From an uncultured Gemmatimonadaceae bacterium (lineage in GTDB: Bacteria; Gemmatimonadota; Gemmatimonadetes; Gemmatimonadales; Gemmatimonadaceae), in assembly GCA_963817955.1 (NCBI GenBank), contig CAWFQK010000004.1, positions 128,001 to 192,000 on the forward strand: a stretch of DNA of 64,000 nucleotides, in the 5' to 3' direction. This document shows positions 2,977 through 49,348 of the stretch, piece after piece. The notes under the pieces are model-generated. The model worked only from the letters and a program-made list of their open reading frames with translations. It was not told where the DNA came from and did not search any database. The position numbers and the translations under genes are program-made. Positions within the stretch are counted from its first letter, which is position 1, and each line of letters begins with the position of its first letter.

Positions 2977-3420
2977 ATGGCTCAACTGTTCAGTCGACTG
3001 CAGCAGGACCTGAATTCCGCACGCAAAGCACGCGACCAGGCGGGAGTACTTCTGCTTGGCACGACCATCTCTGACGTTCGCAACCGCGAGATCGAGTTGA
3101 AGCGCGATCTCACCGACGATGACGTCATGGACGTGCTCCGCCGGGGCATCAAGCGCCGCCGCGAGTCCATTGAGATGTACGAAAAGGGCGGCCGGATGGA
3201 TCTCGCGAGCACCGAGCGCAGCGAAGCCGCGGTGCTCAGTAGCTATCTTCCAGTTGGCGCGAGCGAGGATGAGATCCGCGCTGCGGTCGTCGCCGCAATC
3301 GGTGGCGGCGCGACGAACGTCGGTGCAGTAATGGGCAAGGTGATGTCACAGTTCAAGGGACGCGCGGAAGGCGGCACCATCAACCGGATCGTCCGCGAGG
3401 AGTTAGGCAAGACAGCGTGA
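2977..3420 (+). CDS. GatB/YqeY domain protein
   Basis: KRRRESIEMY...YLP and GAVMGKVM...KGRAEG pattern. Confidence 0.9.
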   Translation: MAQLFSRLQQDLNSARKARDQAGVLLLGTTISDVRNREIELKRDLTDDDVMDVLRRGIKRRRESIEMYEKGGRMDLASTERSEAAVLSSYLPVGASEDEIRAAVVAAIGGGATNVGAVMGKVMSQFKGRAEGGTINRIVREELGKTA

Positions 3421-40744: not shown

Positions 40745-41963
40745 TGCCAAGAGTACGACGGAAACAGCCGAAGAACCAGTCATCGAACCAGTCGGCGGAC
40801 GCGCGATGCGCGAAGGCTGCCCAGCAGACGATGCCGCTCGATGACGGGACTCTCGCGACGCCAGGAAACGCGGCGACAATAGCGATGATTCAAGCGTTGA
40901 TCCCCTTGGGACTCCACGCGGTCGAAGAGGCGCTGGTGGCTGAAGTGCTGGCGCTGGCCGGGCCCCGCTACGCGCATCAGGATGGGCGGCCCGACATCGC
41001 GCGGTGGGGCAGCCGCGACCTGCGCAGCAGGCGAGTGTCGGCCTCTTTCGCCGGGTGCTCGGTGGCCTGTCGTGTCGCGAGTATGAAGCCGCGGCCGAAG
41101 CGGTGCCGGAGGCGTTCGGGCTGACGAAGTCCAGCGTCTCCCGCCGCTTCATTCGCGCGAGTGCGCGGGAGTTGGGCCGGCTGCAGGAGCGGCGGCTGGA
41201 TGATGCCGAGTGGCTGGTGCTCGTGCTCGACGGCAAATCGTTCGCCGGCGACCAGCTCGTGGTCGCGCTCGGCGTGACGACCACGGGCGAGAAGCGCATC
41301 CTCGGGACTCGTGCAGACCGCGAGCGAGAACAAGCGCGCGAGAACAAGCGCGCGAGAACAAGCGCGCGATTGCCAGTTTCCTCCGCGAGCTCGGGGAGCG
41401 CGGCTTTCCGCTCGACCAGCCGCTCTTGGCCGTGCTTGATGGCGCGAAGGGCCTCCGCGCCGCGGTGCGCGACGTGTTCGGCGACATCCCCGTGCAGCGG
41501 TGCCAGTGGCACAAGCGTGAGAATGTGGTGAGCTATCTCGCCAAGCGGGACCAGCCCACGTGGCGCCGAAAGCTCAACGCCGCGTGGGCGCATCCGGCTT
41601 ATGCGGATGCCAAGCGCGCTGGAGCGGTTGTATGGTGAGCTCCGGTTCGTGAACGAATCCGCCGCAGCGAGCCTTGCCGAAGGACTCGAGGAAACGCTGA
41701 CGCTCCATCGGCTGAACGTGTTCCCCGAACTCGGCGTGAGCTTCAAAACGACGAATCTGATCGAGAGCGTCATGGCGCGCCTGGAGGCGAAGACGCACCG
41801 CGTCACGCGCTGGCGGACGAGCGATCAGAAGCTACGCTGGTGTGCGTCGGCGCTCTGGAGCACCGAGCGGCAGTTTCGGCGCGTGAAGAACTATCGCCAG
41901 TTGTCCTTGCTCAAGCAGGCGCTTCAGCCCAAACTCTCTTCCACGAAGACCGCCGCGGCGTAA
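40745..41963 (+). pseudogene. IS256 (Mutator-like) transposase pseudogene
   Basis: SSVSRRF, LDG, VLDGAKGL, QRCQWHK, TTNLIES motifs split over four ORFs, with an apparent internal deletion near 41010. Confidence 0.9.
41324..41369 (+). repeat. 14-bp tandem repeat x3 inside the transposase
   Basis: GCGAGAACAAGCGC three times. Confidence 0.9.
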
Positions 41964-42340: not shown

Positions 42341-45300
42341 TTACGGCGCGACCGACACGAGAGAGCTGAGCGTGTACACTTTGTTCGTGGCGTCCTTGAA
42401 GGTGAGCGTCACTACGTACGTTCCGGCCTTCGCGTACGTCGCAGCCGGTGTGGCGGACGTAGATGTCGCCCCGTTGCCGAAGGCCCACGAGTACGTGGAC
42501 GCCTTCGTGCCGCTCGCCAACTGCACCGTGTAGCTGCAGGCGAGATGCGTGCACTTCGGCGTGAAGGACACCGGCAACGGGGTCAAGGTGGCGATCGTCA
42601 CGGACTGCGTTTTCGTCGCCGTAGCGCCGTCCGTATCGGTCACCGTGAGCGTCAGCGTGAACGTCCCGGTCTTGGCATAGGTGTGCGAGGCCGTCGCGCC
42701 CACAACCGTCGCGGTCCCGTCACCGAACGACCATTGGACCTTCGCAATGCCGGCGTCGTCGGTTGACGGCGCGGAGCTCGCTTGGCAGATCCTGGCCGTG
42801 CAGGCAACGAGGAGGCCTGCCGTCGGCACCGCATTCTTGACCGTGACCGTCGCCGTCGTGCTACTGGTTTGTCCGCGGGAGTCGCGCACTGTCAACGTCC
42901 CGGTGACCGTCCCGAGCGGGAATGCGAGCGTCACCGTCGGCGTGGTTGCCGCGCCGCCGTGGCTGAACGTCCAGGCGTAGGTCACCGTCCCCGCGTCGTC
43001 GGTGGACGAACGTCCGTCGAAGGTGCAGGACCGGCCGATACAGGAGACCGTCGCCTTGGCGACCGGCCGGTTGTCCTTGACCGAGACCGCGACGATCGCC
43101 GTGTCGGTATGTCTCGCCGAGTCGGTGACGATCAGCTTCGCTGTGTAGGATCCAACCGCGGCGTACCGGTGCGCGACCGAACCGACCGTCTTGGCCGTGG
43201 TCGTCTGCCCGTCGCCAAAGATCCACGTCACACCGGTCACGCCCCAATCGTCGGTCGACGACGCGCTGGAGAACGTGCAGGTGACGACGGTGCAGGTCAC
43301 GCTGCCTTTGGCGACCGGCGGGTTGTCCTTCTTGACCGAGACCGCGACGATCGCCGTGTCGGCATGTCTCGCCGAGTCAGTGACGATCAGCGTCGCCGTG
43401 TAGGATCCAGACGCGGCGTACGTGTGCGCGACCGAACCGACCGTCTTGGCCGTGGTCGTCTGCCCGTCGCCAAAGATCCACGTCACACCGGTCACGCCCC
43501 AATCGTCGGTGGACGACGCGCTGGAGAACGTACAGGTGACGACGGTGCAGGTCACGCTGCCTTTGGCGACCGGCGGCGTATCCGTGAACGTGATCGGCTG
43601 TGTGACCGAATCCGTCTGCAACGCCGAGTCCGTGACGATGAGGCGTGCCCAGGTGGCCGTCGGCGTCGCGAACGTCTTCGAGACCGTCGCGCCGCCGGAC
43701 GTGGCGTTATCGCCAAAGCGCCAGAGGTAGGTCGTGATCGGCAATGAGCTCGTCGTCGTCGAGGCGTTGAGCGAGCACGTGAGACGCGTGCACGACACGG
43801 TGAACTTCGCGGTCGGCGCAAAGGCCGCTGCGGCGACGGTCTTCGTTATCACGTCGCTTTGTTGCGCCGCATCCGTGACCGTCAGCGTCACCGCAAACGC
43901 CCCACTCGTGGCGAAGGTCTTCGTCACCTTCACCCCGGAGGCGGTCGTTTGGTCAGCAAACTGCCAGGCGTAGGTCGCGATGCCCTTGTCGTCGAGCGAG
44001 CCGGACGCGTCGAACGTGCAGACGAGTTTCACGCACGACGTCGTGAAGGTCGCCGTCGGCGGCAGATCGGGCATGATAAAGCCGGTGTAGAGCAACCGGT
44101 TGGGCGAGTTGACGTCGCGCAACGCGGTCAGCTTGCCCGTCGTCGCCTTGCTCGTGATGGCGCTCGTGACCGTCGCCGGTGTCGCGGTCGGATTCGTCTC
44201 GAGATAGAGCGCGGCGGTCCCCGCAACCGCCGGCGCCGCCATGGAGGTTCCGGTGGCGTACATCATCTGCGTGTCGCTGGTGCCCCAGGCGGAGTACACG
44301 TTCGCGCCCGGGGCGAAGATCTTGACGCACTGGCCAACGTTGCTGAATGCGCCCACCGAATCGGCGGACGTCGTCGCACCGACGGTGATGGCGTCGGCCG
44401 AGCGCGCCGGCGAGTATTTACACGCGTCCGTGCTGTTGTTGCCCGCGGCGACGACGACGACGACGCCCGCGACCACGGCGCGATGCACGGCGTCATCCAA
44501 CGCCTGCGAGGCGTCGCCCCCGAGGCTCATGTTGACGACGGCGGGACGCGTCGGGTTGGCCTTGCGGTCGGCGGTGACCCAATCGAGGCCCGCGATCACG
44601 TCGGACCACCAGCCACTCCCATCGCAGCTCAGCACGCGGACGCCGACGAGGGTCGCGGCCCGCGCGACGCCGACGGTGTTGCCGCCGGCCGTCCCGGCCA
44701 CGTGCGTGCCGTGCCCGTTGCAATCGGCCGACGTCCCGTTCGGGGTCACGATATCCGGTCCCGCGACGGCACGACCGCCGAACTGCGCGTGCGTGAGCCG
44801 GATGCCGGTGTCGAGGATGTAGATGCGCGTGCCACGGCCGGTGGCGTAATAGCTGTAGTGCTGATCGAGCGGGAGGCCAACCTGATCGATGCGGTCGAGG
44901 TTCCAGCCAGGCGCGTTCTGCACGCTCAAACCCGGCGTACCCGTTGTGCTCGTCGTACCCGTCGCGTGCCGTTCCACGATCGTCGCGTGCGCATGGCCAT
45001 CCGCCTCGATGTACGCGACGCGCGGATCGCGGCGGAGCAGCGCGGCATCGTCAGCCGTCAAATCGGCGCGGAAGCCGCGCAACGCCTCCGTGTAGACCGG
45101 GCCCGTCGCATCGGCGCTCGTCGGGGCCGCGCTGATCGCGCGCGAGAACGACGCACCGCTCGCGGGCAGCGTCAGCCCACGGCCCGCGGCCGTCATCGCG
45201 CGCAGGGTCCGAGCAGCGGTCGGCACGTCGCGCACCGAGTCAGCGAAGACGACGATGTAGCGCGTGGTCAGCGAGGTCGCCGCCGGCGTCGTCACCGGCG

Positions 45301-45511
45301 CGGCGACGGGGCGATGCGTGATTTCAGTTGGGACGTCGCTACAGGCGGCGACGGCGACCGCGAAAGCGGGCGCGACCCGCACGAAGGTGCGAAGCGCGGC
45401 GCCGAAGAGAGGACGGATCGAGGTGATCGGAGAGCGCGCAACGGAGGAAACGGATGAACGCTGGTCGCCGCGCACATGCGACAGGCGACCTTGAGCGTCG
45501 AAGAAGCCCAT
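42341..45511 (-). CDS. S8 subtilase lipoprotein with I9-like prodomain and seven PKD domains
   Basis: Lipobox AVAAC; catalytic DTG, HGTHVAG, GTSMAAP; repeated W-FGDG...LTVTD modules; start uncertain (ORF open to 45700). Confidence 0.92.
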   Translation of the reverse strand: MGFFDAQGRLSHVRGDQRSSVSSVARSPITSIRPLFGAALRTFVRVAPAFAVAVAACSDVPTEITHRPVAAPVTTPAATSLTTRYIVVFADSVRDVPTAARTLRAMTAAGRGLTLPASGASFSRAISAAPTSADATGPVYTEALRGFRADLTADDAALLRRDPRVAYIEADGHAHATIVERHATGTTSTTGTPGLSVQNAPGWNLDRIDQVGLPLDQHYSYYATGRGTRIYILDTGIRLTHAQFGGRAVAGPDIVTPNGTSADCNGHGTHVAGTAGGNTVGVARAATLVGVRVLSCDGSGWWSDVIAGLDWVTADRKANPTRPAVVNMSLGGDASQALDDAVHRAVVAGVVVVVAAGNNSTDACKYSPARSADAITVGATTSADSVGAFSNVGQCVKIFAPGANVYSAWGTSDTQMMYATGTSMAAPAVAGTAALYLETNPTATPATVTSAITSKATTGKLTALRDVNSPNRLLYTGFIMPDLPPTATFTTSCVKLVCTFDASGSLDDKGIATYAWQFADQTTASGVKVTKTFATSGAFAVTLTVTDAAQQSDVITKTVAAAAFAPTAKFTVSCTRLTCSLNASTTTSSLPITTYLWRFGDNATSGGATVSKTFATPTATWARLIVTDSALQTDSVTQPITFTDTPPVAKGSVTCTVVTCTFSSASSTDDWGVTGVTWIFGDGQTTTAKTVGSVAHTYAASGSYTATLIVTDSARHADTAIVAVSVKKDNPPVAKGSVTCTVVTCTFSSASSTDDWGVTGVTWIFGDGQTTTAKTVGSVAHRYAAVGSYTAKLIVTDSARHTDTAIVAVSVKDNRPVAKATVSCIGRSCTFDGRSSTDDAGTVTYAWTFSHGGAATTPTVTLAFPLGTVTGTLTVRDSRGQTSSTTATVTVKNAVPTAGLLVACTARICQASSAPSTDDAGIAKVQWSFGDGTATVVGATASHTYAKTGTFTLTLTVTDTDGATATKTQSVTIATLTPLPVSFTPKCTHLACSYTVQLASGTKASTYSWAFGNGATSTSATPAATYAKAGTYVVTLTFKDATNKVYTLSSLVSVAP
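43076..43576. repeat. Near-identical tandem duplication of one PKD-coding unit (255-bp period)
   Basis: 43076-43321 versus 43331-43576. Confidence 0.92.
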
Positions 45512-45941
45512 GTCTTGTGTGTCCCCGCGGCCTTCGAGCGAGGCCGCTGATCGATCGTGACGCCGCGGTGGGCACAGGAGCCGAGCTGAGTGCTGGCCGC
45601 TCACCGAAGCGTGCCGGGCCTGGGCGACAGCACCACCCGTCATGGCCTGACCCAACGCAGTGTCGGCCGGCCCGGCGGTGCGATCGATCACACGGGCCAT
45701 AATCTGTAATAGAATGTGACAGTCTGCTCAGCATTGGCCATTCAGGCGATGCCAGTCTTCCCTGTGCATCGAGTGAAATATTCACGAGTATAACGAGCGT
45801 ATTCTCGTCATGAGGCGCCAACGAGTATTTGCACACCCGGCGCCGGCATGCTGAAATGGGCAACGGTTGCGCACGGTCTGGAACCACTCTTCGAGCATGC
45901 CGACGTGGCAGTGGCGGCCGGCCGGCCGCGACCGTGAGCCC

Positions 45942-46120
45942 CTTCCGGGATTGGGATGTGGCGCCCATGATAGTATGGTGTTCTCATTAGAAAACCAGCG
46001 ATAGCGGACCGGACCACATACGCGACGATCCTGGGGCCACTGCCACGGCAGTGGGCTGGGGCCTCGCTCCCCGATGATGAAAATCTTCTAATCTTTCCCC
46101 ACCCATTCTGAGGCCGGAAG
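45942..46120. repeat. 179-bp non-coding element, copy 1
   Basis: CTTCCGG...CCGGAAG termini; about 75% identical to 47150-47328 by manual alignment. Confidence 0.88.
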
Positions 46121-46306
46121 CTCCCAGCCTTCTCATCTTTCCCGCCTACTTGCTATAGAGTCGGAAGACGCACGACCTTCGAGTCAAGTTCGCGCACGTC
46201 CCGACCGATGATTGCGGGGGGATTCCAGTCTGGTGCCAGGCTGGTACCTCAATCCCTGCGAACTATTCCGCCGGGACGAATCCGCCGCTCTTGTGCACCC
46301 TCCGCC

Positions 46307-47071
46307 ATGCCCACCGTATCTCCCGCTCCCCCGCGCTCCTCGCTGCGCGTCTCGCTGCGTTCCTCCCTGCGCTCCTCGCTCGCTCGCACCTTCGCCGCCA
46401 TCGGCCTGTTGGCCATGGGCGTGGTGGCGTGCAGCGGAAGCCCGATGGGCCCGGATGGGCCACCACTGCCGCCCTTCCACCCGCCTCACACGCTCAGCCA
46501 ACTGAAGTTTGCCCCGGACAGCCTCGCGCTCGACAAGGGTGGGCAGGGCCAAGTGACACTGGTCGGGTTCTATGCCGACGGGGCCATATTGCCCATCGCC
46601 GACGCGTCCTGGCTGGTCGGCGATACGTCCATCGTTCGCCTCGACTCGGCCACCCATCAGGCCACGGGGCGCCGTGGTGGCCAGACGACGATTGTGGCAA
46701 CCAAAGATGGGGTCAATGCAACGCTGCAGGTCACGGTCGTCGCCCCGTTCTTCATCTACGTGTCGCCCGGCGCAGATTGTATGCGGCTGGTTTTCCCGGG
46801 CCTGCAGGATTCCGCCTGGGTCATCGACACGAAGACGCGTCTCCGGTTGCCGGACCGCCCCGTCACGTCCTGGCGCTCGTCGGACTCGACGGTCATGGCC
46901 GTCGATCAGACGGGGTTCATGACGCCACACCACGCGGGCGTGGCCAACATCATCGCGGAAGTCGATGGCGAGATCGGCATGAATTACAACGTCGTCGATC
47001 CGGCGCCGTTGGGTACACCGATGACCTGCACCGGGCTCTTCTCATCTTCCGCTCCCGCACGCAAACCATGA
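46307..47071 (+). CDS. Lipoprotein with two Ig-like (Big_2-like) domains
   Basis: Lipobox VVAC; W-SSD-TV--VDQTG and G-TTIVAT patterns. Confidence 0.75.
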   Translation: MPTVSPAPPRSSLRVSLRSSLRSSLARTFAAIGLLAMGVVACSGSPMGPDGPPLPPFHPPHTLSQLKFAPDSLALDKGGQGQVTLVGFYADGAILPIADASWLVGDTSIVRLDSATHQATGRRGGQTTIVATKDGVNATLQVTVVAPFFIYVSPGADCMRLVFPGLQDSAWVIDTKTRLRLPDRPVTSWRSSDSTVMAVDQTGFMTPHHAGVANIIAEVDGEIGMNYNVVDPAPLGTPMTCTGLFSSSAPARKP

Positions 47072-47149
47072 CAGGGCGACTGGGCCAGTGCGCCGAAAAC
47101 CGGGCGGCGGGCAATCCGCTGGCATCGGGGGTGCCGAGCGAATCTGGGT

Positions 47150-47328
47150 CTTCCGGGATTGGAGTAGGTCGCCCGGCATAGTAGGTCTCTTCATTGTGAG
47201 AACCAGGGATGGAGGACCGGGCGCTCTACGCAACGATCCAAGGGATCTACTGCCACCGCGGTGGGCTGGACCGCGATCCCCGATAATGAGAATCTTCTCA
47301 TCTTTCTCACTCACTATCAAGCCGGAAG
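47150..47328. repeat. 179-bp non-coding element, copy 2
   Basis: Terminal IR extends to TGGGTCTTCCGG / CCGGAAGACCCA; homologous to 45942-46120. Confidence 0.88.
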
Positions 47329-47521
47329 ACCCAAGGATTCCACCACATCTTGCGTCGCGCTTGACGTGGCTGGCTCAGTCTTCCTTCTTCATGGGCGGTG
47401 CCTCCTTTTCGTGCCGGGATTCTCCCCGGGGGGGATTAGTCTCACCCGAGAAGGTGTCACGACCTTCCGTCTATTCTTCCGTCTATTTCCACACCTTTTC
47501 ACAGTAGCTCAGTCGAACCTC

Positions 47522-48826
47522 GTGATCACCGAATCTGACGCTGTCGCCTCTGGCGACTGCAACGCGACGGTCGATGCCGCAACGGCTCGCGCCGATGCCA
47601 TGCGACTCACCGATGCGCGCGCGGGGGTGGTCGTCGCGGACGAAGCGGCAGCACTCGCTCGGGCCCACGGCTATCGCCTTGGTGAGGCGCGCGCCTTGCG
47701 CGCCGGAGCGGTATGCCGGTCGCGTCTCCTGGATGTCCAGCGCGCTCTGGAACACGCCACGACAGCCGCGACGATCTTTGCCCAACTCGGCGAGGGTCGG
47801 GAGCGCGCCGCAACGCTCAACGCGATCGGTCGTCTGCACCTACAGCGTGGAGATTGCGCGGAAGCCGCTCGCTTCCACGTCGCCGCCCTCGAGCTGCAAC
47901 GTGATCTGCTCGACACCGCCGGTGAGGCCGAAACGCGGACCGCGCTTGGCGCCGTTCATTTCGCCGCTGGCGAAATCGCACCTGCGATCGATCAGTTTCG
48001 GGTGAGCCACGATCTATTCGAGGCGCTTGGCGATACCCGTGGCGTGATGATGGCCATGATGGACATCGGGTCCGCGCTCGGATCGGCCGGACAGGTTCGT
48101 GAAGGGCTCGCGTATCACGAGCGCGCCCTGGACTACGCCCTCCATTGCTCGAATGTTGAGCACGCCGCTATCGCGCACAACAACATTGGGTATGGGCACG
48201 CCAGGCTCGGTGACCGGGACACCGCGCTCATGCACTATCAGACATCGCTCACGCTCGCACGTTCCGCCGGCAACGTCGAGGGGGAGGTTGCGTTTCTCGA
48301 GAACATTGGGCTTCTGAAATCGGACGCCGGGGACATTGAAGGCGCGCTCGCGATCTTTCGTCAAGTAGCCGACATGAGCGACGAGAGCCAGCTCCGGGTT
48401 CACCAAGCCGAAGCCAAACTGCGCACGGGTGAGCTGTTGGCGCGCGTCGGGCAGTATGACTCCGCGCTGATCACGTTGCATGCCGCGCTCGACCTGAACG
48501 GAGAAACGGGCGCACGGCAGCAACTGGGGGACATTCACCACGCGCTCGTGGCAGTGCATGAAGCGCTCGACGAGCCGGCGCTCGCCTTGCGCCATTTCAA
48601 GCTGTTTTACGATGTGCGCGAAGAACTGCGTGGGGCGGACGCCGAGCGCCGCGTGCTCAGTGTCATGATCCAGTCCGAGGTGCGCGAAAAGGAACGAGAG
48701 GCAACCTTGCTCCGTGAGCGCAACGCGGCGCTCGATGCTGCGAACCAGGAGAAGGCTCGCCTCCTGGCCCAACTCGAAGAACAGGCCGCGGAGCTCGATC
48801 GATTAGGGCGTGTGATGGAGTATTGA
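47522..48826 (+). CDS. Tetratricopeptide repeat protein ending in a coiled coil (appears C-terminally truncated)
   Basis: Repeated LNAIG/NNIG/ENIG TPR helices; start uncertain (ORF open from 47261). Confidence 0.82.
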   Translation: MITESDAVASGDCNATVDAATARADAMRLTDARAGVVVADEAAALARAHGYRLGEARALRAGAVCRSRLLDVQRALEHATTAATIFAQLGEGRERAATLNAIGRLHLQRGDCAEAARFHVAALELQRDLLDTAGEAETRTALGAVHFAAGEIAPAIDQFRVSHDLFEALGDTRGVMMAMMDIGSALGSAGQVREGLAYHERALDYALHCSNVEHAAIAHNNIGYGHARLGDRDTALMHYQTSLTLARSAGNVEGEVAFLENIGLLKSDAGDIEGALAIFRQVADMSDESQLRVHQAEAKLRTGELLARVGQYDSALITLHAALDLNGETGARQQLGDIHHALVAVHEALDEPALALRHFKLFYDVREELRGADAERRVLSVMIQSEVREKEREATLLRERNAALDAANQEKARLLAQLEEQAAELDRLGRVMEY

Positions 48827-48991
48827 GTAGCGCGATGACTTTCGGCAACATGAGACAGGCGGAGGCGAGATAGTGCAGACCGGCCAGGGTCTCGGGCAAT
48901 CGCTAGAAATCGCGTGCGAGCCGACGAAAGCGCGCCATCCACGCGTAGCTGCGTTCCACCAGCGCGGGCCGACAGCGACGACGATGCGCCT

Positions 48992-49348
48992 ATGCCCGAA
49001 TTGACGCCAACGACTCCGCTGCAAGTGGCCATCTCCAAACGCGCCTTCAATGCGATCGATATGGATCGCCTGCGCGCTCGGCTGGTGGCGATGGGATCGG
49101 CGCGGACACGATTCGAATCCAACGAGCGGCACGCGGGCATCGGGGATGTCCGGCTTACCTGCCCCGTACTCATCGCGACAGGAATTGTCGACGAGCTCCG
49201 GGTGTGCGCGGGTGAAGCTGAAGTGCGCCACGACTCGGCGACGCTCATCGCCTGCGCCGAAGCTGTCGCGGCAATCTTCCGGGCGATGGATGAGGAGAGA
49301 GATCGGCCCGCGTGGGCGGGTTGGCAAACGCGCCCTGCGCCGAAGTAG
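48992..49348 (+). CDS. Hypothetical protein
   Basis: ORF with plausible composition; no recognised motif. Confidence 0.5.
   Translation: MPELTPTTPLQVAISKRAFNAIDMDRLRARLVAMGSARTRFESNERHAGIGDVRLTCPVLIATGIVDELRVCAGEAEVRHDSATLIACAEAVAAIFRAMDEERDRPAWAGWQTRPAPK

Follow-up and report, generated by a model that had tools for sequence, protein, structure and literature searches.

Two short non-coding elements on either side of a single gene in a stretch of 64,000 nucleotides of Gemmatimonadaceae DNA (the window, that is, the whole stretch analysed) are very probably old MITE copies, produced from an ISL3-family insertion sequence (IS) by one internal deletion that removed nearly the whole transposase gene. 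The halves of the elements are homologous to both ends of an intact IS, their copies have a deletion junction in common, and the family is dispersed in multiple copies over the source genome. A sequence-only reading of the window had offered several identities for the pair, of which the MITE-like element was thereby the right one. That reading recognised no known family, but there is one: the blocks conserved between the elements correspond to the ends of an ISL3-family IS, with codons from either end of the transposase gene (the first 12 and the last 13) among them. Decay from a known protein gene and identity with a known IS end, both named by that reading as grounds for refutation, thus apply to the elements.

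The 179-bp elements and their relation to ISL3 insertion sequences

The two copies (copy 1, or c4a, with its core at 45942-46120, and copy 2, or c4b, with its core at 47150-47328) had been described as 179 bp long, starting with CTTCCGG, ending with CCGGAAG and about 75% identical, and all of this held. The pair is 75.3% identical over 182 columns (blastn E 1.5e-23; E 1.3e-24 in a whole-genome search), far above chance, or 72.4% when gaps are scored as mismatches, and indels do break any reading frame common to the two. The 12-bp inverted repeat ascribed to copy 2 is likewise present (TGGGTCTTCCGG / CCGGAAGACCCA). The true termini of the element, GGGTCTTCCGG...CCGGAAGACCC, lie 4 nt beyond these cores; counting the 4-nt outer termini of the parent IS, each copy measures 187 bp, and the copies occupy 45938..46124 and 47146..47332, both on the + strand. 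The parent-like termini are intact in copy 2, and the outer 4 nt of copy 1 have diverged (GCCC...CTCC versus GGGT...ACCC in the parent). Both copies, at 179-187 bp, are smaller than about 500 bp and contain no transposase gene. The terminal complementarity is a pair of inverted repeats, and the conserved blocks are relics of IS ends and codons.

The lead to the IS came solely from a profile search; copy 1 itself gave no blastn matches at E <= 0.001 in 40 relatives. In one relative genome (G002), a family profile built with copy 1 included (R1) matched with its positions 90-179 only (E 1.5e-13), where an ISL3 transposase pseudogene with a frameshift comes to its 3' end (...TEGLNAKIQWIKYSSRGFRDRERFKRAIYFHCGGLDMDPR, then stops) and is followed by GCCGGAAGACCC; searching 400 genomes of the class with the 76-aa C-terminal piece returned a single weak match that was of no use. 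We then fetched 80 loci encoding relatives of the G002 transposase and searched 37 sources with R1. At two loci of a MAG from the same family (L033 and L034), both halves of the profile matched: positions 2-117/120 at L034:1904-2013 (E 2e-11) and L033:1905-2016 (E 2e-9), and positions 88/90-179 at L034:3140-3223 (E 3e-10) and L033:3144-3229 (E 2e-11). In either case, the two half-matches are on one strand, about 1.3 kb apart, on either side of a transposase gene, and the collinearity of the element's halves with the IS ends, which was checked, holds. A further locus, L037, was matched by both halves as well (E 0.03 and 2e-6).

L033 and L034 carry an intact ISL3-family IS of 1.33 kb. The transposase ORFs enclosed by the two profile matches encode 408 and 410 aa, contain the domains DDE_Tnp_ISL3 (PF01610; E 4.6e-70 and 9e-70), Zn_ribbon_ISL3 and HTH_Tnp_ISL3 (PF14690 and PF13542), and have the N-terminus MDDRTLYATILGIAPPW and the C-terminus AIYFHCGGLDLDPR. 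Their closest annotated relatives bear the name 'ISL3 family transposase' (about 38% identity, full length), with the plasmid-borne 'ISL3-like element ISKox3 family transposase' likewise near (about 38% amino acid identity). The termini of this IS, GGGTCTTCCGG / CCGGAAGACCC, are the same as those of copy 2, whose right and left halves align to it by blastn with 78.7% identity over 89 bp (E 6.6e-14) and 71.8% identity over 103 bp (E 1.8e-8), respectively. Two of the five copies, namely copy 1 and a diverged copy elsewhere in the genome (c2c), gave no blastn match to the parent-type IS at E <= 1e-3; their tie to it runs through the family profile and copy c2a. Inverted repeats, 5' UTR, first 12 and last 13 codons, and 3' tail are collinear between the IS and the elements, and because the elements are only 69-80% identical to this nearest intact IS, we regard it as a relative of the parent rather than the parent itself.

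Codon relics, the deletion junction and the genomic copies

The left part of the element comprises the left inverted repeat, the 5' UTR and transposase codons 1-12 (M-x-D-R-x-x-Y-A-T-I-L/Q-G), and the right part comprises the last 13 codons (IYxHxGGLDxDPR-stop), a 3' tail of about 45 bp and the right inverted repeat. Some 1.14 kb of the IS, with all of the catalytic transposase, is missing from the window elements. In copy 2, the 12 first and 13 last codons still form an in-frame mini-ORF of 25 codons (47209..47286, + strand; MEDRALYATIQG|IYCHRGGLDRDPR, stop), which is found in this copy only. In copy 1. In copy 1 it is broken: the relic of codons 1-12 (46001..46036, + strand) has its start mutated to ATA and reads IADRTTYATILG before going out of frame, the corresponding stretch of intact transposases being MDDRTLYATILG.

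The two parts are fused at a CTCGGGATC/CTCGCGATC microhomology, which in copy 2 appears as GGGATC at 47242..47247 (+ strand) in alignments to the IS. In the parent IS, CTCGGGATC follows codon 12 and CTCGCGATC precedes the final 13 codons; the junction lies within these 9-bp direct repeats, which agree at 8 of 9 positions. All four full copies that were aligned have the junction at the same place, and the diverged c2c, inspected by eye, looks consistent with it.

Across the source genome, nhmmer located the family at seven places on contigs C2 and C4 (E < 0.01), namely four full copies, one diverged copy and two short fragments, which share 66-82% mutual identity and represent about four independent contexts. 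Copy 1 and c2a are 84% identical over 418 bp with flanks included; the corresponding segmental duplicate in the window (45839..46254, + strand, matching C2:887318-887731) contains copy 1 and extends beyond it by 99 bp upstream and 130 bp downstream. The partial copies c2d and c2e keep different pieces of the element. All seven members are intergenic, upstream of and co-oriented with a gene, the downstream genes encoding Big_2 proteins, TPR or TPR-GGDEF proteins, a MacB-type permease and a secreted protein. This co-orientation of all copies could hint at selection.

Under the origin that we favour, a single internal deletion would have joined the left repeat, 5' UTR and 12 codons to the last 13 codons, 3' tail and right repeat. 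For its movement, the product would depend on an ISL3 transposase provided in trans and binding both inverted repeats, and each insertion should duplicate 8 bp of the target. The copies would have spread by such trans-mobilisation, and segmental duplications would later have multiplied c4a/c2a as well as c4b/c2d/c2e. Alternatively, the elements may never have been mobile as MITEs, a full-length ISL3 element having been present at each site and having suffered the same in-situ deletion each time, favoured by the 9-bp repeats. The 8-of-9 microhomology could indeed make the deletion recurrent, and neither target duplications nor empty sites are there to prove MITE insertion. However, a single junction is compatible with all copies aligned over it (the four full ones and c2c), and the source genome keeps no copy of the IS that is full-length or deleted in another way. 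One deletion with subsequent spread is more parsimonious than four independent identical deletions coupled with the loss of all intact copies. We consider this alternative unlikely.

Target sites, partner elements and the bracketed gene

Among related IS copies with the same CTTCCGG...CCGGAAG architecture, L059, L068 and L072 are bordered by clean 8-bp direct repeats (GAAATCAT, GAGAAAAG and GAAGTTCT, respectively), and for the Gemmatimonadaceae IS, 8-bp duplications were inferred across contigs (GAATCCTT from L033 left and L034 right; GAGAGCTC from L034 left and L124 right). Unlike these relatives, the window elements keep no duplication: the 8 bp to the left (GCGAATCT) and right (AAGGATTC) of copy 2 are 3/8 identical, and the flanks of copy 1 contain nothing recognisable. 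Age and recombination would be expected to erase target duplications, and the missing duplication weakens the proof of transposition, not that of IS origin. An empty site was sought, and not found, through a third copy of the upstream flank (C2:911031-911164), in which homology ends exactly at the MITE border with no resumption downstream. Among the sequencing runs listed as containing this DNA, none was of RNA, and four DNA runs from one study contained small shares, which gave only short low-depth contigs and no joints. Two 151-nt records (47042-47192 and 47064-47214) bridge the left border of copy 2, and no piece spans an element.

Whereas the ISL3 IS encodes its own transposase, the window elements do not, and a PF01610 search of the source assembly (94% complete) revealed no intact ISL3 transposase that could act as a partner; the assembly holds a 46-position fragment of a different ISL3 element (C1:533614-533751). 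Considering the lack of an intact transposase in the assembly, the divergence of the copies and the absence of remaining target duplications, the copies are old and now probably immobile relics.

The gene between the copies (46307..47071, + strand) encodes a putative lipoprotein with a bacterial Ig-like domain (Pfam Big_2, 6.5e-7). As described earlier, each copy lies some 190 bp upstream of a + strand gene, with 186 bp to the ATG at 46307 and 193 bp to the GTG at 47522. The earlier observation that the two copies bracket one gene is correct as geometry, but there is no indication of an acting unit. It is highly improbable that the directly oriented pair together with the gene constitutes a MITE-bounded composite transposon or cassette that brought the Big_2 lipoprotein gene, even though the outer ends (the left repeat of copy 1 and the right repeat of copy 2) make a valid ISL3 end pair, the region is full of IS debris, and close orthologs of the gene are absent from 30 other genomes of the genus (1/30 matched at E <= 1e-10, at 29% identity). 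No 8-bp flank is shared outside the pair, the Big_2 unit is not present twice in the genome (one match only), and the two copies, at 75% identity, are embedded in flanks that are mosaics of other repeats: copy 1 is closer to c2a, and copy 2 shares an IS256 remnant with c2d and c2e. Because each is shared with copies elsewhere, the flanks came together by segmental duplication and not by one transposition. With no sign of the pair acting as a unit, the suggested cassette recombination site delimiting the Ig-lipoprotein gene is unsupported.

Copy 2 is directly abutted by a 5'-end remnant of an IS256-family element (47333..47510, - strand), consisting of the end, 5' UTR, Shine-Dalgarno sequence and ATG AAG AAG, followed by a frameshift. 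By blastn, 47353-47510 is 83-84% identical to C4:729759-729906, C4:1379306-1379452 and C2:902474-902620, all three of which directly adjoin a Transposase_mut (PF00872) gene. The words noticed earlier in both downstream spacers, GGGGGGATT..AGTCT and CACGACCTTC, could not be confirmed as meaningful: they occur in opposite order in the two spacers and, in the second, lie inside this remnant. The gene downstream of copy 2 (47522..48826, + strand; Pfam TPR_12) is a truncated paralog of the TPR-GGDEF gene on C2, its product being 86% identical over 430 aa to the 608-aa C2 protein and ending before the GGDEF domain. Nucleotide homology (86%) extends over 47355-48000 to C2:893889-893257, and the TPR gene was copied in one piece with debris of the MITE and IS256 elements. 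In this region, the DNA between genes is a patchwork of IS debris in which an ISL3-derived MITE stands beside an IS256 end, and it was copied along with neighbouring genes.

Regulatory readings and comparison with known systems

A different function has to be weighed, in which the elements, co-opted or not, would serve the genes downstream, which encode surface and signalling proteins, as a structured cis-regulatory RNA, leader or promoter module. The intergenic, upstream and co-oriented position of all seven members is compatible with such a role, the relic transposase promoter and 5' UTR could drive read-through, and the - strand of copy 2 folds more stably than its shuffles (z = -3.3). The other three single-sequence folds (both strands and both copies being folded) are within the range of the shuffles, however, with z from -0.6 to -1.3, and RNAalifold on four copies found 1/42 pairs compensatory on each strand, that is, no covariation. 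Neither strand of 44000-49000 has an Rfam match at E <= 1, and a consensus scan of 45700-47560, covering sigma-70-type promoters only, returned none. The three helices whose pairing had been thought conserved have 0/20 pairs changed on both sides and exceed shuffles by no measure; the inner hairpin falls in the codons YxHxGG, and by hand count two of its seven positions are unpaired in the parent IS. The orientation bias is not significant, because only about four of the insertion events are independent, and the partial copies c2d and c2e keep differing pieces. Taken with the IS-derived content, these results leave the 'unnamed structured RNA or leader' unsupported and make a regulatory module extremely improbable. 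As a candidate in its own right, a structured RNA was rejected on the Rfam result, the lack of covarying pairs, and the match of the ends and codons to an ISL3 IS.

It is also very unlikely that the relic MITEs are anything but inert, whether through co-option of the retained transposase promoter and 5' UTR for downstream genes, or through the direct-oriented pair still being mobilisable as a 1.4-kb Big_2-carrying unit once an ISL3 transposase enters the cell. Co-option is conceivable because each copy precedes, in the same orientation, a gene whose product is a surface or signalling protein.

The core of an attC site is GTTRRRY. With integron attC sites and structured RNAs, the window elements have in common an imperfect terminal self-complementarity and a place between co-oriented genes. 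Yet their ends, by direct reading, are CTTCCGG/CCGGAAG, and their content is IS-derived coding and end sequence; from structured non-coding RNA families they are set apart by the lack of an Rfam match and of covariation. A false lead is hereby cleared, in that a conserved, self-complementary and seemingly non-coding 179-bp repeat beside surface-protein genes is neither a new riboswitch nor a new sRNA or recombination site. The elements are ordinary mobile-DNA debris, and with them the small number of ISL3-derived MITEs described so far gains one from Gemmatimonadaceae. Knowing that the intergenic DNA is such a patchwork helps to annotate the source genome and to mask repeats when regulatory RNAs are sought.

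A close counterpart is a MITE of 187 nt in Microcystis aeruginosa PCC 7806, with repeats (GGCTCTTCG...) like those of ISL3 elements, which have 8-nt direct repeats (PMC11448079). As described there, the Microcystis MITE is attributed to ISL3-family transposases; its copies number more than 30, are identical and come with 8-nt direct repeats, and it is evidently active (PMC11448079). The window elements, by contrast, belong to another phylum and to a family of four full and three partial copies that are 66-82% identical and keep no duplications. The two are nevertheless of the same kind and size (187 bp with termini), their inverted repeats, likened here by description, are both ISL3-like (GGCTCTTCG... 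in Microcystis, GGGTCTTCCGG here), and each is found mostly between genes and includes short relic ORFs (PMC11448079).

The element family in the genome

Reading of the window sequence, which is C4:128001-192000 of the own assembly, confirmed two 179-bp look-alikes, copy 1 (c4a) at 45942-46120 and copy 2 (c4b) at 47150-47328, both beginning CTTCCGG and ending CCGGAAG. Their alignment spans 182 columns at 75.3% identity (E 1.5e-23; 72.4% with gaps counted). A blastn search of the bacterium's own genome with copy 1 returned four strong matches and one short one, and an nhmmer profile built from four full copies, namely c4a, c4b and, on contig C2, c2a (C2:887452-887628) and c2b (C2:912708-912885), placed the family at seven places at E < 0.01. 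The profile also detected a diverged copy, c2c (C2:289778-289925), and two short pieces, c2d (C2:893882-893949) and c2e (C2:901148-901203). Compared pairwise, the four full copies are 66-82% identical to one another. Orientation relative to the downstream genes is uniform across the family, but with about four independent insertion contexts (c4a/c2a; c4b/c2d/c2e; c2b; c2c) this uniformity carries no statistical weight.

Two ISL3 ends joined by an internal deletion

A sequence-only covariance model of the four full copies (R1), run over 30 other genomes of the genus, gave partial matches in three, the best of which (G002, E 1.5e-13) covers positions 90-179 only. On direct reading, the match covers the 3' end of a pseudogene, a frameshifted ISL3-type transposase gene that closes with ...HRITNAVTEGLNAKIQWIKYSSRGFRDRERFKRAIYFHCGGLDMDPR, two stops, about 45 bp and then GCCGGAAGACCC. 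A search of genome contigs with a 90-aa piece of this pseudogene confirmed 386 relatives, 80 loci of which were kept; the nearest among these 80, L033 (87% amino acid identity) and L034 (82%), both come from one Gemmatimonadaceae MAG. Over 37 loci, R1 gave 23 matches at E <= 1. In L034, its positions 2-117 match 1904-2013 (E 2.3e-11) and positions 90-179 match 3140-3223 (E 2.6e-10), and the corresponding half-matches in L033 lie at 1905-2016 (E 2.4e-9) and 3144-3229 (E 1.9e-11). Both halves are matched more weakly in L037 (E 0.032 and 2.4e-6), the right half only in L035 and G002, and the left half only in L036 and genome G024.

In each locus the two half-matches enclose an intact ORF, 408 aa long in L034 and 410 aa in L033, with the domains DDE_Tnp_ISL3 (E 9e-70 and 4.6e-70, respectively), Zn_ribbon_ISL3 and HTH_Tnp_ISL3; the IS in L034 is 1,329 bp long, with termini GGGTCTTCCGGGAATTGAGTGGGT... 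and ...CAAAGCCGGAAGACCC. Eight R1 matches, several at contig ends, occur in the MAG that holds L033 and L034 (G435, = G472), and the IS is therefore multi-copy there. In a plasmid search with the L033 transposase (tblastn), all matches fell below 60% identity, the best being annotated 'ISL3 family transposase' and one 'ISL3-like element ISKox3 family' (about 38% identity). R1 matches of any kind were present in three of 150 family genomes, each a half-match or fragment, and a contiguous match outside the own assembly was not found in those searched among the 30 genus and 150 family genomes, a fraction of the candidates having been scored.

The L033 and L034 transposases begin with MDDRTLYATILGIAPPW and end with AIYFHCGGLDLDPR, and copy 2 reads ATG-MEDRALYATIQG-IYCHRGGLDRDPR-TAA-TGA at 47209-47289; copy 1 reads IADRTTYATILG from 46001, with its start codon mutated to ATA and the frame shifting afterwards. 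The element is collinear with the IS from the left terminus through ...ACGATCCTNGGGATC (left-end alignment, A5) and from ...GCGATCTACTNCCAC to the right terminus (right-end alignment, A6). At the deletion junction, CTCGGGATC after codon 12 meets CTCGCGATC 13 codons before the stop, with 8-of-9 microhomology; the junction is identical in the four full copies aligned there (A5/A6), and in the diverged c2c, aligned separately, it looks consistent by eye. Against the two IS, blastn aligned the right half of c4b at 78.7% over 89 bp and its left half at 71.8% over 103 bp, c2a at 75.0% over 96 bp and 73.4% over 79 bp, and c2b at 80.4% over 92 bp and 75.4% over 57 bp. Neither c4a nor c2c gave a blastn row at E <= 1e-3, and the family tie of c4a follows from its 84% identity to c2a and its profile match.

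The element consists of both ends of an ISL3-family IS, brought together by one internal deletion. The MITE-like option of the sequence-only reading is borne out by the collinearity of both halves with the IS ends and the common junction in the four full copies. The same microhomology-driven deletion could have arisen in situ at each copy, which is less parsimonious than one deletion followed by spread.

The alternative of a structured RNA or leader is unsupported. No Rfam family matched either strand of 44000-49000 at E <= 1, and single-fold z-scores were within shuffles (-0.6 and -1.3 on the + strand, -0.8 on the - strand) except for copy 2 on the - strand (-3.3). RNAalifold of the four copies found a compensatory change in 1 of 42 pairs per strand, with a covariation term positive or near zero. 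In the three helices proposed from sequence, none of 20 pairs is altered on both sides, no measure exceeds shuffles, and covariation is no better than for slid partners. The proposed inner hairpin lies inside transposase codons (Y-x-H-x-G-G), and two of its seven positions are unpaired in the parent-type IS, counted by eye from the parent sequence. Co-option of the elements as promoter or leader likewise found no positive support.

Element termini, target sites and spread

The true termini lie 4 nt beyond the earlier coordinates on each side; copy 2 has kept them intact (47146-47332, GGGT...ACCC), and in copy 1 they have diverged (45938-46124, GCCC...CTCC). ISL3 relatives in other phyla, among the 80 loci, have CTTCCGG...CCGGAAG ends plus four further terminal bases. 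Clean 8-bp direct repeats flank L059 (GAAATCAT), L068 (GAGAAAAG) and L072 (GAAGTTCT), in a scan limited to such ends spaced 1.2-1.5 kb, most of whose 31 rows are chance pairs. The left flank of L033 equals the right flank of L034 (GAATCCTT), and the left flank of L034 equals the right flank of a further copy, L124 (GAGAGCTC); these are probably two 8-bp duplications, with partners split by assembly or recombination across IS copies. Such pairing across contigs points to recombination between IS copies, or to a chimeric join, in the assembly of this MAG.

The window elements have a direct precedent, alike in kind and size, in a 187-nt Microcystis MITE, whose described repeats (GGCTCTTCG...) match ISL3 elements with 8-nt direct repeats (PMC11448079). 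The window element probably spread non-autonomously, with an ISL3 transposase acting in trans to recognise its terminal inverted repeats and duplicate 8 bp at the target. Segmental duplication would later have multiplied two of the copies, and all would since have decayed without a resident transposase. The window copies show no 8-bp duplication (copy 2 is flanked by GCGAATCT on the left and AAGGATTC on the right), and no empty insertion site was found. A PF01610 search of the own assembly found no intact ISL3 transposase; its sole trace, C1:533614-533751, is a 46-position C-terminal fragment from another ISL3 lineage, at nucleotide level unrelated to the MITE.

The 8-mer target sites used by this ISL3 lineage resemble one another (GAATCCTT, GAGAGCTC, GAGGATTC and AAGGATTC, the last being the reverse complement of the first). 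They lie at L033:1892-1899, L034:1891-1898 and 3228-3235, L124 about 1486-1497, L127 about 1604-1615 and window 47333-47340, and in the MAG TTA precedes and/or TAA follows them; a target-site preference is possible.

Mosaic surroundings

Judged from its sequence, the intergenic DNA around the elements is a mosaic of repeats. Just past copy 2, 47353-47510 is 83-84% identical to C4:729759-729906, C4:1379306-1379452 and C2:902474-902620, and likewise to the DNA adjoining c2d and c2e. All three homologous places directly adjoin a Transposase_mut (IS256-family) gene, two of which look full-length (open frames of 457 and 429 aa). Read by eye, the full copies run on the - strand from a Shine-Dalgarno through ATG AAG AAG ATG AAG GAT GAG... 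into the transposase, and the conserved spacer is therefore an IS256-family 5' end. The window remnant (47333-47510, - strand) keeps the Shine-Dalgarno and ATG AAG AAG and then shifts frame, having lost 2 bp relative to the full copies at that point; its homology reaches AAGGATTCCA, directly after the MITE terminus, and copy 2 abuts it. The words said to be common to both downstream spacers come in the reverse order in spacer 1, without collinearity.

A 418-bp segment containing copy 1 (45839-46254) is 84% identical to C2:887318-887731, which makes c4a and c2a segmental duplicates. C2 also carries a duplicate of copy 2, the IS256 remnant and the opening 1.3 kb of the TPR gene (47355-48000 versus C2:893889-893257, 86%). 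The window TPR protein (47522-48826) shares 86% amino acid identity over 430 aa with a 608-aa TPR-GGDEF protein (C2:891915-893744) and ends just before the GGDEF domain of this counterpart, a diguanylate-cyclase gene; the window gene may be a pseudogene or else a paralog lacking that domain.

The idea of a cassette recombination site delimiting the Big_2 gene is unsupported, the conserved content being ISL3 ends and transposase codons, and that the copies act as a composite transposon for this gene found no positive support. Four DNA sequencing runs gave short, low-depth contigs only, with no joints. The Big_2 gene has no close ortholog among the 30 other genus genomes, one of which matched at E <= 1e-10 (29% identity).

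Upstream of copy 1, a third small repeat family (45789-45937, C2:887633-887731 and C2:911031-911164; 80-87% identity) includes a hairpin-type palindrome, ACGAGCGTATTCTCGT (45793-45808), and its homology stops exactly at the MITE border; it may be an operator site or another IS end. A further Transposase_mut (IS256-family) fragment lies at 41345-41617 (+ strand, E 8e-10), and this part of the window thus holds several IS relics. Divergent from the copy-1 region, 42341-45700 (- strand) encodes a 1119-aa secreted subtilase (Peptidase_S8 with I9 propeptide) with seven PKD repeats, of which two have almost the same sequence.
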